From Treponema sp. (GTDB taxonomy: Bacteria > Spirochaetota > Spirochaetia > Treponematales > Treponemataceae), in contig JAGAZO010000018.1 of the NCBI GenBank assembly GCA_017940005.1, positions 34,030 through 98,029 on the forward strand: a stretch of DNA of 64,000 bases. Reading direction: 5' to 3'. Below are positions 32,580-36,602 of the stretch, in pieces. Position 1 is the first letter of the stretch. The number at the start of each line of letters is the position of its first letter. The position numbers and the translations under genes were made by a program. Under the pieces are notes generated by a model. The model ran no database searches and was not told where the DNA came from. It saw only the letters and a program-made list of their open reading frames with translations.

Positions 32580-34007
32580 ATGGTAATCGCTTCGATTGAT
32601 TTGAAAGACGGTCGCGTTGTGCAGCTTAAAAATGGAAAATCGCTTGTGCTTGAACGCAATGATGCAGACGCGCTCATAGAAGAGTTCAACCGCTATGGCG
32701 AAGTTGCTGTTATAGATGTAGATGCCGCGCTTGGAAACAGCGATGAAAAAGGCAATACAAAAAATACAGAGCTTTTGAAACGCCTTTTGCGAAAAGGAAA
32801 TGTGCGCGTAGGCGGTGGCATTCGGAGCGTCAAGCGTGCAAAAGAGCTTGTTGCGCTCGGCGCAGAAAAAGTGATTGTCGGCTCCGCCGCGTGGAATATC
32901 AGAGCAGCGGAGCAGAGGAAAAGCGCGATACCTGACAGTGCGACTGCTCGCAGCGCGAGTGCTTGTGTAATTAATGCGGCAGATGGCGACGCGGTTAGCG
33001 TGTCTGATGCAACTGCAAGTGATGCGACTGCTCACAGCGCGAAATCAGACATTATCAACGCGGCATTTCTTGACGAACTCGTTTCTGCAATCGGAAAGCA
33101 GCGAGTCATCATTGCTGTTGATTCAATAGGCGGAAACATTGCAGTAAATGGCTGGACGGAAACAGTAAATGTGCCGCTCGTGCAAGGCGCACAGCTTGCA
33201 GAAAAATATTGTAGCGAGCTGCTGTTCACGTGCGTAGAAAAAGAAGGTTGCATGAGTGGCACAGACATGACGCTTGTGCAGCAGCTTCGGAGCGCAGTAT
33301 CATGTCGCGTTGTCGCAGCGGGCGGCGTTTCCTCTGTTCCAGAGATTGCAGCTCTTGAAAAAATTGGGTGCGATGTGCAGCTTGGCATGGCGCTGTACAC
33401 AGGCGCAGTCTCGCTCAAAGATGCGTTTATTGGCTGCTTGAACTGGGCAAAATCGCCACTCATTCCTGTGATTGCGCAGAGCGTAAACGGAGACGTACTC
33501 ATGCTCGGCTACGCAAATCAAGAAGCGTTTGCGAAATCATTTGATACAAACCGCCTTACGTTTTTTAGTCGCACGCGTGGCACGCTGTGGACAAAAGGCG
33601 AGACGAGCGGCAACTACCTTGAGCTTGTAAAACTCCGTGCAGACTGCGACCGCGACACAGTGCTTGCAACTGTCGTGCCGCGTGGAAATGTATGCCACAC
33701 CGGTGCATTCACATGCTTTTCGGGCGAAGCGGCAGAGCCGTCATCTGCGGGGAAACTGTACAATATCATCGCTGAACGATTTGCGCATCCTACTCCTGGC
33801 TCGTACACAGCAACGCTCGACGACACGCGCGTGCGCGAAAAGATTATGGAAGAAGCGGAAGAGCTGTGCGACGAAGCGCAAACAAAGCAGGATGTTGTTT
33901 GGGAAACGGCAGATTTGTTTTACTTTTTAAACGTGCTCATGTATAAAGAAGGCGTTACATGGAAAGACGTGTACGACGAGCTTGACAGACGGCATCGAGA
34001 GCGGTAG
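32580..34007 (+). CDS. hisIE: Fusion of HisA-like barrel + HisI (PR-AMP cyclohydrolase) + HisE (PR-ATP pyrophosphatase)
   Basis: SIDLKDGRVVQL; KGETSGN..DCDRD..CHTG; SYTA..KIMEEAEE..ETADL. Confidence 0.9.
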   Translation: MVIASIDLKDGRVVQLKNGKSLVLERNDADALIEEFNRYGEVAVIDVDAALGNSDEKGNTKNTELLKRLLRKGNVRVGGGIRSVKRAKELVALGAEKVIVGSAAWNIRAAEQRKSAIPDSATARSASACVINAADGDAVSVSDATASDATAHSAKSDIINAAFLDELVSAIGKQRVIIAVDSIGGNIAVNGWTETVNVPLVQGAQLAEKYCSELLFTCVEKEGCMSGTDMTLVQQLRSAVSCRVVAAGGVSSVPEIAALEKIGCDVQLGMALYTGAVSLKDAFIGCLNWAKSPLIPVIAQSVNGDVLMLGYANQEAFAKSFDTNRLTFFSRTRGTLWTKGETSGNYLELVKLRADCDRDTVLATVVPRGNVCHTGAFTCFSGEAAEPSSAGKLYNIIAERFAHPTPGSYTATLDDTRVREKIMEEAEELCDEAQTKQDVVWETADLFYFLNVLMYKEGVTWKDVYDELDRRHRER

Positions 34008-34234
34008 CAAGTTTTAATAATTGAGTTATCTATAATTCAGTTCATTTGTATTTCGGTCAGTTTGTGTTTTGTTTATTTGTTTTTTTGCCGACCTGTCGAA
34101 AATGGAGGGGCGGATTATTTCCAAAGATTGCACCTCCGCCACGTCCATTTACGGGAATGTAAAGCTAGCAGTCTTTAGGTCGGTTTCCTGGTTCACGTTC
34201 TCATAAATGAACGTCTGCCACTTGCTACTGGGAG

Positions 34235-34589
34235 AAAAGTCTTGCGGATTCTGACACTGAACTTGTGTACAATCAGAAGTTTACGCGGCACTTGCCGAGA
34301 ACTATCCAGAAAGTAGCGTTGCGAAAGCTGATAATGATAGACAATGCAAAGTGCCTGAATGACCTGCGCGTACCGCCTGGCACAGGAAATAAACGTGCCC
34401 GTCTCGCGCGTACAGGACATCCTGCATGACCGCCGCAAGATTACTGTTGATACGTCGCTTCGGTTTGCAAAATTCTTCAGTGTGTCGGAAGGCTATTTTA
34501 TGTCATTGCAGAATGACATAGATATCCGCAACGCCCGCATTGAACTTGCGCCGCAGATAGAGCAGATAAAAGCGTATGCCTACGCATAA
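34235..34589 (+). pseudogene. Collapsed higBA toxin-antitoxin remnant (HigB 5' half fused to HigA 3' part)
   Basis: KSLADSDTELVYNQ..ALRKLIMIDNAKCLNDLRVPPG (HigB-like) joined at 34371-34382 to AYRLAQEINVPVSRVQDILHDRRKITVDTSLRFAKFF (HigA-like). Confidence 0.85.
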
Positions 34590-34650
34590 AATCTATGCTA
34601 CTTACATGAGTAACGGTAAAGAGGAGGCAGTTTGGTTCGTTTTGCCGAGT

Positions 34651-34986
34651 TTAGTTTAGGTTGTTTTGTTTAGGAAGAAGCGTTGGCAGTTTTAGTGGTT
34701 CAACTGTTTTTTCCAAAACACAAACTTCCAAACTGTCTGCCATTGCACGACATGGTTCAATCATATCATCGGCAAGATTGAAGCTGTTAAAATCATTGTG
34801 ATGGTGAATGCACAATGAAATCCTGTTGAAAGCAATGCTCTGATGATATAACTCCTGATGATTGCATAGCTGTAATTGAGCGCGCTGTTTACTTCATCGG
34901 GGGGATTGATTTGCTCAAATAACATTCGCGCGTTTTTCTATGTGCACTTCCGATGGCTTTATAATTTCTGCAATTCGATATGCCAT
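34651..34986 (-). pseudogene. cas1: Internally deleted type II cas1 remnant
   Basis: Pieces in different frames: MAYRIAEIIKPSEVHIEK / DEVNSALNYSYAIIRSYIIRALLSTGFHCAF / HHHNDFNSFNLADDMIEPCRAMAD / LKLPTLLP*. Confidence 0.85.
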
Positions 34987-35153
34987 GTCGCAATTGTAAC
35001 ATGAAATCAACGAGAATTGTAATTTGTGGCTGTTCACATGTTGTATGGCATATTCTATTTTTTTTTGCTATACTGCATGCAGCTGTTGCATGCAGATTGT
35101 GCACGCTTGGAAAATTGTGCGTATGGTGTACGCAGCAGCAAAGCAGTAACGCC

Positions 35154-36602
35154 ATGATACAAATACAAAATGCATCAGATGTTGAAGACTCATTTTTTGC
35201 GCCACGCGATTTTACCGGTTCGTCAGAGCTTGTGCGCGCTGTGCTTGACGACGTAAAAGCACGCGGAGATGATGCGCTTCGCGAGTACGGCGAAAAGTTT
35301 GACGGCATGCGCACCGAATCGTTTTTGATTTGCGAACGTGAGCTTGCACGGGCGGCGGAAAAATTGCAGCGCGAGAATGAACGCGTGTATGACGCGCTCG
35401 TATATTCGCGCGACTTGGCGTTGCGCTTTGCGCTCAAGCAAAAAGAATCGTTCACTGATTTTGAAGTGGAGCTTGAGCGTGGGCTTTTTACCGGACAAAA
35501 GATAATTCCCGTTTCTCGCGCAGGCGTGTATGTTCCCGCAGGACGCTTTCCGCTTGTGTCAACAGTTGTTATGACAGCAACGCCAGCAGTTGCAGCGGGC
35601 GTGCAGGAAATTGTGCTGTGCACTCCGCCGCGCGTGCATCCCGATGACGTGCAGCGCAACGCAGGCGGCGCAAGCTGTGCAGATGCCGCATGTGGCACAA
35701 ATCGTGCAAACAGTACAACGACGGGCAATGCGGTAGCGGGCAGCGCAACGGCGGTCACCATGCGCAACAATGCAGACAGCGTAAGCGGCAAGCCATATGC
35801 AGATGAAATGATTCTTGCTGCAGCCCACATTTGCGGCGTAAAAAATGTATACGCAGTTGGCGGCGCGCAAGCGATTGCAGCTATGGCGTTCGGTACGCAG
35901 ACAATTCCCGCATGCGATGTAATCGTGGGACCGGGAAATAAATTTGTTGCCGCCGCAAAAAAAGAAGTGTACGGCACTGTTGGCATAGACATGATTGCGG
36001 GGCCTACAGAAGTGTTCATCATTGCGGACAGTTCTGCGAATCCTGCATGGCTTGCCGCCGACTTGCTCGCGCAGGCCGAGCACGATGTCGAGGCACAACC
36101 AGTGCTCGCCACACCCGACAAGCAACTGGCGCAACATGTTGCAGCGGAAATTGAAAAGCAGCTGGCGCTTCTCCCCACGCGCAAAACAGCAGAGGCGAGC
36201 ATTGAAACGTGCGGCAGGATTATCATCACTGAGTCGTTTGAGCAGGCGGCGGAACTTGCGAATCGCAAAGCGCCGGAGCACCTTGAACTTGCAATGGAAC
36301 GTGGAAGCGCGCGCGAAAAAATTGTGTCACTCGTTCACAATTACGGCTCGCTCTTTGTGGGGCACTACGCGGCAGAAGTGCTCGGCGACTATGCCGCAGG
36401 ATTAAATCACACGCTGCCAACTTCTGGTTCCGCGCGATTTACCGGTGGCTTGAGCGTGCGTTGCTTTTTGAAAACGGTGACAACGCTCCGCGCAGAAAAA
36501 GATGCTGACGGTTTGAAAAAAAGTGCAGCGGCAAGCGCGCATTTGGGAGATGCGGAAGGTCTTGCCGCCCACGCGAATGCCGCACGGTTGCGCATGCAGT
36601 GA
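35154..36602 (+). CDS. hisD: Histidinol dehydrogenase
   Basis: GVYVPAG, VGGAQAIAAMAFGT, GPGNKFV, DMIAGPTE, AQAEHD, APEHLEL, GLNHTLPT; start at ATG 35154 rather than 34980. Confidence 0.95.
   Translation: MIQIQNASDVEDSFFAPRDFTGSSELVRAVLDDVKARGDDALREYGEKFDGMRTESFLICERELARAAEKLQRENERVYDALVYSRDLALRFALKQKESFTDFEVELERGLFTGQKIIPVSRAGVYVPAGRFPLVSTVVMTATPAVAAGVQEIVLCTPPRVHPDDVQRNAGGASCADAACGTNRANSTTTGNAVAGSATAVTMRNNADSVSGKPYADEMILAAAHICGVKNVYAVGGAQAIAAMAFGTQTIPACDVIVGPGNKFVAAAKKEVYGTVGIDMIAGPTEVFIIADSSANPAWLAADLLAQAEHDVEAQPVLATPDKQLAQHVAAEIEKQLALLPTRKTAEASIETCGRIIITESFEQAAELANRKAPEHLELAMERGSAREKIVSLVHNYGSLFVGHYAAEVLGDYAAGLNHTLPTSGSARFTGGLSVRCFLKTVTTLRAEKDADGLKKSAAASAHLGDAEGLAAHANAARLRMQ

Follow-up and report, generated by a model that had tools for sequence, protein, structure and literature searches.

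A decayed cas1 between hisAIE and hisD in Treponema: probable wreck of a Cas9-less cas1-cas2 island with gene-sized 'spacers'

Type II-C CRISPR-Cas systems of the Helicobacter and Neisseria type carry an adaptation module with a Cas1 of family TIGR03639, overlapping cas1 and cas2 genes, and a 36-nt repeat right after cas2. Kilobase DNA insertion linked to a Cas1-family integrase is known from casposons, and gene-sized units are arrayed in integrons, in which attC sites measure about 57–140 nt and intI adjoins attI. Here we describe the remains of a type II-family cas1 in a 64-kb stretch of a Treponema sp. genome (assembly GCA_017940005.1, contig JAGAZO010000018.1, positions 34,030 to 98,029; hereafter the window), where they lie on the minus strand between the fused gene hisAIE and hisD. 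We consider it likely, with a probability of roughly 65%, that window positions 34084–35043 are the dead wreck of a foreign, Cas9-less cas1-cas2 island with gene-sized 'spacers'.

The Treponema Cas1 clade that encloses this fossil shares the described features of the type II-C module, and Helicobacter type II-C Cas1 forms its sister group, with 54–57% identity in the core and a similar 3′ end of the repeat (AAAAC/ACAAC). In contrast to type II-C systems, the clade has no cas9 in the locus or in the genome, its strongly palindromic repeats are 0.2–2.2 kb apart, and genes and gene fragments replace the ~30-nt spacers; the copy in the window, a pseudogene, has no cas2. With chromosomal integrons the clade arrays share gene-sized units, palindromic repeats, a wealth of toxin–antitoxin genes and strain-specific content, but they have 36-nt repeats, no adjacent IntI, and cas1-cas2 as the adjacent enzyme genes. 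As in casposons, a Cas1-family integrase is associated with kilobase insertions; unlike casposons, the clade shows no terminal inverted repeats or polB, contains Cas2 and keeps its repeat array at one fixed locus. The fossil also resembles orphan or decayed CRISPR-Cas loci in its inactivated cas gene, internal deletions, frame changes and lost partners. It differs from them in that its parent system corresponds to no standard CRISPR-Cas type and in that large internal cas1 deletions recur across the clade with near-coincident ends.

The fossil consists of four collinear cas1 pieces in two reading frames on the minus strand (34986–34651, Table 1). Frame 0 encodes MAYRIAEIIKPSEVHIEKRANVI followed by a stop codon (34986–34915). 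Frame +1 then continues down to 34806 with DEVNSALNYSYAIIRSYIIRALLSTGFHCAF (long reading, EQINPPDEVNSALNYSYAIIRSYIIRALLSTGFHCAF), after which frame 0 resumes with HHHNDFNSFNLADDMIEPCRA (34805–34744) and MADSLEVCVLEKTVEPLKLPTLLPKQNNLN (34743–34651), together HHHNDFNSFNLADDMIEPCRAMADSLEVCVLEKTVEPLKLPTLLPKQNNLN and a stop codon. The NCBIfam model of type II Cas1, TIGR03639, matches the two central pieces at positions 170–202 (E = 4e-8) and 201–228 (E = 1e-8), and the Pfam Cas1 model matches at E = 1e-4. Tblastn with intact relatives as queries recovers the core (E = 4e-20) and the N-terminal 23 residues (E = 0.013). An initial annotation, made from the letters of the window, had pointed out Cas1 motifs of the type II family in this region; all four segments proved to be as described, and the core and N-terminal pieces are significant by profile and tblastn.

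A clade profile built from six intact close relatives was also run against the complete six-frame set of the window (3147 pieces). The three best scores all fall on adjacent, collinear pieces of the fossil, at profile positions 168–201 (E = 5.6e-15), 196–232 (E = 2e-10) and 1–18 (E = 0.029); every piece outside the fossil had an E-value above 0.5. The C-terminal piece appears as a weak second domain of the 196–232 piece (profile 269–292, score 4.9). Since the fossil pieces are top-ranked, significant and collinear, the observation is real: this is a decayed cas1, far above chance. The two TIGR03639 fragments score 32.7 and 34.8 bits over positions 170–228 only and miss the family cut-off (120 bits, full length), which fits a fragmentary pseudogene. 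The intact relatives have full-length Cas1 open reading frames (ORFs) of 294–311 amino acids (aa) with every motif present. In the window, an intact Cas1 with the catalytic Glu-His-Asp set is precluded by the stop that follows codon 23, by +1 and –7 shifts, and by loss of the Glu region (NIEAQ, about codon 148) within a 408-nt deletion; the HHH and DD motifs are kept.

The relatives were taken from three collections, namely 301 congeneric genomes, a GTDB set with one genome for each species, and metagenomes of the Joint Genome Institute (JGI); L, G and C numbers below denote loci, genomes and contigs. About 20 loci belong to one Treponema Cas1 clade, found in metagenome-assembled genomes (MAGs) from rumen and gut and in the isolate Treponema sp. 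C6A8. The nearest, L162, is 81% identical to the fossil, and other clade members are 70–77% identical. In a maximum-likelihood tree the fossil falls inside an 11-row Treponema clade (98/89), which joins a second Treponema clade in a 17-row group (100/100); Helicobacter type II-C Cas1 branches next. None of the 17 members of both Treponema clades has cas9 beside cas1 at loci with readable flanks, and a genome-wide search with a Cas9 model found no Cas9 in seven clade genomes (G354–G358, G131 and G245). Upstream of the clade cas1 lie unrelated genes instead, encoding PBP1A, an OmpA-like protein, guaA, a galE-like protein or an aminotransferase. The many unrelated contexts share a sharp left boundary ~43 nt before the ATG. 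In the Helicobacter and other outgroup loci, cas9 stands directly upstream of cas1 and the arrays have a period of about 65–67 nt.

The arrays of these relatives are unusual. A 36-nt palindromic repeat begins ~20 nt after the cas2 stop codon (forms ACTGAATGACCTTCCGTTTTCGGCAGGTGATACAAC and, in L162, CCTAAACGACCTTCCGATTTCGGAAGGTCGTAAAAC), and identical copies follow downstream at spacings of 190–2173 nt; one MAG (G354) has nine copies on contig C159 and four on C70. Elsewhere in the clade genomes the repeat is not dispersed, and reversed-pattern controls gave zero matches. The sister clade has its own 36-nt repeat (GGTTGACGACCCTCCAAAAATTGCGGGTCGTTATACC) at spacings of 222–306 nt (L022–L027; for example L024 of G131, 375–940). 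Repeat length and 3′ end (ACAAC/AAAAC) agree with Cas9-linked repeats of Treponema and Helicobacter. Whole genes occur between repeats, such as toxin–antitoxin pairs of the Gp49/helix-turn-helix (HTH) and DUF4258/YokU-like kinds, a barstar-like gene, and an ORF of 575 aa which we tentatively take to be a family-5 glycoside hydrolase. Many other units are cut gene fragments in either orientation; genes cut at repeats include the first third of a YrdC/Sua5 gene (its N-terminus) and sigma region 4. Cargo of the kind preserved in the window is also present in L055 and G128.

Three pairs of loci (L054/L167, L165/L168 and L055/L171) are 92–99.6% identical through cas1-cas2 and the first repeat and show no homology past the end of that repeat. 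This pattern reads as the signature of insertion or exchange at the first repeat, and Cas1-Cas2 would presumably be the inserting enzyme. Our search of the literature for Cas1-linked cassette or long-spacer arrays found no description of such a system. A separate observation concerns Candidatus Treponema merdequi (L183, G356:C47, 123–5581), in which clade-type repeats bound gene blocks of 0.5–3.4 kb on a contig without cas1-cas2. The sole cas1-cas2 of this organism (contig C14) is decayed: cas1 is 5′-truncated and has an internal deletion, cas2 has two stop codons, and half a repeat remains.

In the window, 1147 nt separate hisAIE from hisD; for the majority of congeners and for other genera of the order, the distance is 5–100 nt. 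As the initial annotation had noted, a toxin–antitoxin module lies beside the cas1 remains in this interval, and it is a remnant as well. A complete HigB/HigA pair is not there: what is left are residues 3–51 of 93 of HigB, without start codon and C-terminal half, and residues 25–98 of 98 of HigA, the latter with 81% identity to an intact HigA from a congener. The two are fused by a ~278-nt deletion relative to the intact pair in G245, and both run antisense to cas1. The adjoining phage fragment (~40 codons) is internal to its gene, is cut on both sides and is the sole copy in this genome; in congeners the DNA circularisation protein gene adjoins a tape-measure gene. At 34084–34117, 534 nt beyond the cas1 stop codon, we found a degenerate copy of the clade repeat. 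Its score against the L162 repeat was reached by 1 of 1000 shuffles, and a generic repeat set gave p = 0.025 at the same place. This copy is probably the last repeat of a former array. The remnants of higBA, phage gene and repeat fit the layout of the clade. A CRISPR array with ~30-nt spacers is absent from the interval.

Two candidates for further parts of the module were rejected. A cas2 remnant at 34560–34650 was suggested by MAFFT similarity, yet tblastn and blastn were empty, and the score of a possible first repeat at 34617–34650 (CCTAAACTAAACTCGGCAAAACG...) was not above that of shuffled sequences. On the right, the foreign DNA ends at the native hisD upstream region, and hisD would be served by this conserved region of its own. 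Rfam, promoter and terminator scans of 33900–35300 gave nothing above chance except the promoter-like site of hisD.

Table 1. Features of the hisAIE–hisD interval, intact relatives with arrays, and cas1 deletions (deletion end points in 301-aa numbering)
Feature	Coordinates	Strand	Description
hisA/F-hisIE fusion gene, left flank	32580..34007	+	PF00977, PF01502, PF01503
Degenerate clade repeat	34084..34117	-	24/33 bases, closest to L162 form CCTAAACGACCTTCCGATTTCGGAAGGTCGTAAAAC
Mu-like phage 'DNA circularisation protein' fragment	34123..34235	-	residues 14-~50, one in-frame stop; PF07157; separate search E 7e-11
higB'	34235..34381	+	residues 3-51 of 93-aa HigB; PF05015 E 1e-4; separate search E 1e-21
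'higA	34365..34589	+	residues 25-98 and stop codon, N-terminus gone; TIGR02607 E 1e-14
Gap at expected cas2 (about 306 nt) and first 36-nt repeat	34592..34650		59 nt, no significant match
cas1 3' piece	34651..34743	-	MADSLEVCVLEKTVEPLKLPTLLPKQNNLN and stop, codons 269-292 of L162 (MADSFKAAIMKKDPEKLELPLLTD)
cas1 catalytic-region piece	34744..34805	-	original frame, (H)HHNDFNSFNLADDMIEPCRA, codons ~200-221, His and Asp motifs
cas1 middle piece	34806..34910	-	frame +1, INPPDEVNSALNYSYAIIRSYIIRALLSTGFHCAF, codons ~162-197 of L162
cas1 5' piece	34911..34986	-	codons 1-23 MAYRIAEIIKPSEVHIEKRANVI; extra T (34917) gives TGA; codons 24-25 GAG CAA (EQ)
Native hisD upstream region	35044..35153	+	78% identical to G074 hisD upstream; promoter-like ATGGCA-18-TATACT with TG
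hisD, right flank	35154..36602	+	PF00815
Intact module with array, L052 with L182	1395-4358; 132-398		G354:C159
Intact module with array, L055	2599-4491		
Intact module with array, L053	1713-2515		
Intact module with array, L162	3704-3964		
Window deletion 1			codons 25 to 162
Window deletion 3			141 nt, in frame
G128 deletion	L021 1426-1760		codons 23 to 160, out of frame
L055-type deletion	L055 1899-2387		codons 19 to 159, in frame
L070-type deletion	L070 3734-4291		codons 10 to about 88, in frame
L168 deletion	L168 380-1111		180 nt, in frame; 1-nt microhomology against 99.2% identical allele
G288 deletion	L020 1440-2000		41 codons, in frame

The decay of cas1 can be followed against L162, the nearest intact gene found, which lies on a metagenome contig and encodes a Cas1 of 294 aa that is 81% identical to the fossil core. 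The 5′ piece is collinear with codons 1–25 of L162 (MPYRIVQITKPSECHITNHHLIIEQ), and one added T after codon 23 creates the TGA stop. Codons 26–161 are absent (deletion 1, about 408 nt), which sets the 5′ edge of the middle piece, and two further codons are missing near positions 164–169. A 7-nt deletion at Gly198-Ile199, between 34806 and 34805, forms the 3′ edge of that piece: the window reads GCATTC and directly thereafter ACCATCAC, and L162 reads GCC CTG GGA ATA CAT CAT. Combined, the +1 and –7 changes bring the last third of the fossil back into the original frame. Codons 222–268 are gone through an in-frame deletion of 141 nt (deletion 3) located between two ATGGNNGAC motifs; the 3′ piece that follows is collinear with L162, although blastn returns it only at E = 0.27. 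The three deletions of ~408, 7 and 141 nt agree with the earlier count of at least three.

The initial annotation had attributed these losses to serial microhomology deletions, which is clear for the 141-nt deletion only. Its ends, ATGGTTGAC (AMVD) and ATGGCAGAC (LMAD), have 4 exact bases in common and match at 7 of 9 overall. This direct near-repeat is also found in other clade members, and a microhomology origin is therefore plausible there. The loss of 7 bp was correctly recognized, as 8 of 8 relatives carry 7 more bases at the site, but the proposed ancestor GCATTC-G-GCATTC is not supported: in the relatives the Gly codon is GGA, and Gly-Ile is written GGA ATN. The deletion could equally well have arisen from ATTC-GGA-ATTC or through a 1-nt overlap. 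Microhomology cannot be shown at deletion 1 or at the 7-nt deletion because divergence around the junctions is too great or the original bases cannot be recovered. The nonsynonymous divergence (dN) between the window copy and the others is 0.10–0.21, compared to 0.016–0.11 among the others, with synonymous sites saturated; the raised dN fits long relaxed constraint. The fossil locus is non-functional, and we expect no activity from any part of it.

Large stretches have been lost from within cas1 more than once in the clade, at nearly the same end points (Table 1). The left ends fall at codons 10–25 and the right ends at 158–162, or at about 88 and 145; for the window, G128 and L055-type deletions both end points lie within a few codons of each other. 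The reading frame is kept in five of the six or seven events (binomial p roughly 0.02–0.05, in a small sample). We considered and rejected one old shared pseudogene behind the window and G128 deletions (dN/dS 0.04). Since synonymous sites are saturated and G128 groups with the intact L169 (99/83), these two deletions are independent. The recurrence suggests a hot spot or selection. Taken together, the fossil and its broken cousins suggest that such modules are short-lived and become inactivated in a stereotyped way.

How may this locus have formed? A foreign island would have been inserted between hisAIE and hisD, and it may once have been complete at this site. It would have comprised a cas1-cas2 module of type II-C descent, lacking Cas9, and a short 36-nt repeat array. 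Gene-sized DNA would have served as 'spacers', namely higBA and some DNA of a Mu-like phage. Such long DNA would have been inserted or exchanged exactly at the cas2-proximal repeat, presumably by the Cas1-Cas2 integrase. Death would have come by deletion: cas1 lost about 408, 7 and 141 nt and gained 1 nt, and cas2 would have disappeared along with the first repeat. The higBA pair lost about 278 nt and its start codon, the phage piece is cut on both sides, and one degenerate repeat is left.

The initial annotation had instead concluded that a Cas9 system once sat here. A complete type II locus, from which cas9, cas2, the trans-activating CRISPR RNA (tracrRNA) and a normal array were all deleted to leave pieces of cas1, would account for the TIGR03639 family of the Cas1, for the cas9-bearing Helicobacter type II-C outgroup, and for the many Cas9-linked loci in the genus, one of which is in this genome (contig C10). 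We regard this as very unlikely, given that the 17 members of the enclosing Treponema clades lack cas9 beside cas1 and the clade genomes lack Cas9. The toxin–antitoxin pair, phage fragment and clade-type repeat also match a long-spacer layout, not a 30-nt array, and no Cas9-like fragment was found in the six-frame ORF translations of the interval; a genome-wide TIGR01865 scan matched contig C10 only. It is unlikely, too, that no complete locus ever existed here and that an already truncated cas1 arrived with a toxin–antitoxin piece by recombination or transfer, coming from a mobile element or a different strain. In favour of this, cas1 genes of the clade do occur in many unrelated surroundings with a sharp left boundary and are often truncated, and the junction is rearranged in G074, where hisAIE is inverted relative to hisD. 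Against such an arrival, the window retains both natural ends of the module in the right order and orientation, that is, the cas1 start with ~57 nt of upstream DNA and the terminal repeat, and the raised dN fits long decay in place.

Retention of the remnant for a function, as a small Cas1-derived peptide, an antisense RNA or part of the hisD promoter, might be read from the recurrent and mostly in-frame deletions of the N-terminal domain, or from the distance of 167 nt between the 5′ end of the fossil and hisD. Given the early stop, two frame changes and loss of the catalytic Glu region, we find this extremely unlikely; the upstream region of hisD conserved with G074 falls outside the fossil, and within it the Rfam scan was empty and predicted promoters or terminators did not exceed chance. 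Hardly more credible is the idea that the repeats of the relatives are attC-like sites of chromosomal integrons and that cas1-cas2 merely lies beside a cassette array. Chromosomal integrons do exist in Treponema species (PMC3607928), the content is cassette-like, the repeats are imperfectly palindromic, and G358 and G131 have true integron integrases, with a broken one in G354. But the repeats measure 36 nt and the Treponema attC sites 63–132 bp (PMC3607928), and the first repeat always starts ~20 nt after cas2. The 36-nt repeat is absent within 7–8 kb of the integron integrases, which occupy other contigs, and G355, G356 and G357 contain no integron integrase above the family cut-off, nor does the genome of the window (G000). 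In both their length and their ACAAC/AAAAC 3′ end, the repeats correspond to those of Cas9-linked type II loci of Treponema and Helicobacter. We therefore reject the integron reading, with some residual doubt.

Several observations weigh against the Cas9-less island proposed here. Tblastn and blastn with clade cas2 found no trace of cas2 in the window, as the initial annotation had stated, and no first repeat was found after cas1. The annotation had also seen no array, and the one degenerate repeat that amends this statement is a weak match: it agrees at 24 of 33 bases, has a p-value of about 0.001 following two related tests, and goes unreported by nhmmer. Between higB' and the phage fragment no repeat is found, which calls for either a deletion or a composite insert. 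The fossil covers 36% of the tree columns, and its branch is long and basal in the clade. The relatives are mostly MAG or metagenome contigs of 2–13 kb, which makes a distant cas9 possible at each locus, and the genome-wide absence of Cas9 rests on genomes that are 69–99% complete. Finally, no strain was found with an intact locus at this site: 7 of 7 contigs with identical HisD have the same interval, and the comparison of related strains, for which the annotation had envisaged an intact cas9-cas1-cas2-array, yielded none in 18 congeners.

Taken alone, the fossil counts as an ordinary pseudogene located in the spacer of a housekeeping operon; what gives it value is that it points to the Cas9-less clade. 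Beyond this locus we propose, tentatively and at somewhat less than even odds, that it represents, in dead form, a so far undescribed Treponema lineage of Cas1-Cas2 integrases derived from type II-C. Such a lineage, without Cas9 or a spacer-length limit, would write 0.2–2 kb of foreign DNA, whole toxin–antitoxin and other genes among it, at the cas2-proximal repeat and would have been switched off repeatedly by cas1 deletions. If Cas1-Cas2 is the inserting enzyme, these modules would represent natural site-specific writing of kilobase DNA into a chromosome and a second way, of CRISPR origin, in which integron-like cassette arrays can arise. The mostly in-frame and near-coincident cas1 deletions would then point to selection against an active long-DNA integrase, or to a sequence-specific liability of it.

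The genome of the window has a type II locus of its own on contig C10, with an intact type II Cas1 (279.7 bits), cas2 and a normal array of 65–66 nt period. This Cas1 shares only about 47% identity with the fossil and belongs to a different clade of the tree, which rules out that the fossil is a recent copy of it. In the same region (G000:C10:23938-41155), an intact cas9 (about 1290 aa) is located ~11.6 kb upstream of the cas1-cas2-array, with other genes between; an insertion into the locus may have produced this gap.

The interval is also carried, in identical form, by four metagenome DNA runs. In the orthologous hisAIE–hisD intervals of the 18 congeners we found no cas gene and no higBA, and some of them hold other inserted genes. 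Those in L134, L135, L138, L142 and L145 (G010, G002, G013, G016 and G009) presumably encode a lipoprotein, a flavin reductase-like protein, a glycosidase and an AsnC-type regulator. The junction is a recurrent site of gene insertion in congeners. In the closest species found (G074; HisD 83% and Def 95% identical), hisAIE is inverted and stands head-to-head with hisD at a distance of 125 nt (L186, G074:C42 547-3292), and the junction has therefore been rearranged in this lineage. A 32-nt promoter-like element in the hisD upstream region (TGGCATATTCTNTTTTTTTTTGCTATACT, window 35044–35075) recurs with 94% identity at G000:C3:70746-70777, upstream of an unrelated gene. HisD itself contains, at residues ~167–210, a low-complexity insert of ~40 residues, rich in Ala, Gly, Thr and Asn, which the HisD of every compared congener, G074 included, lacks.

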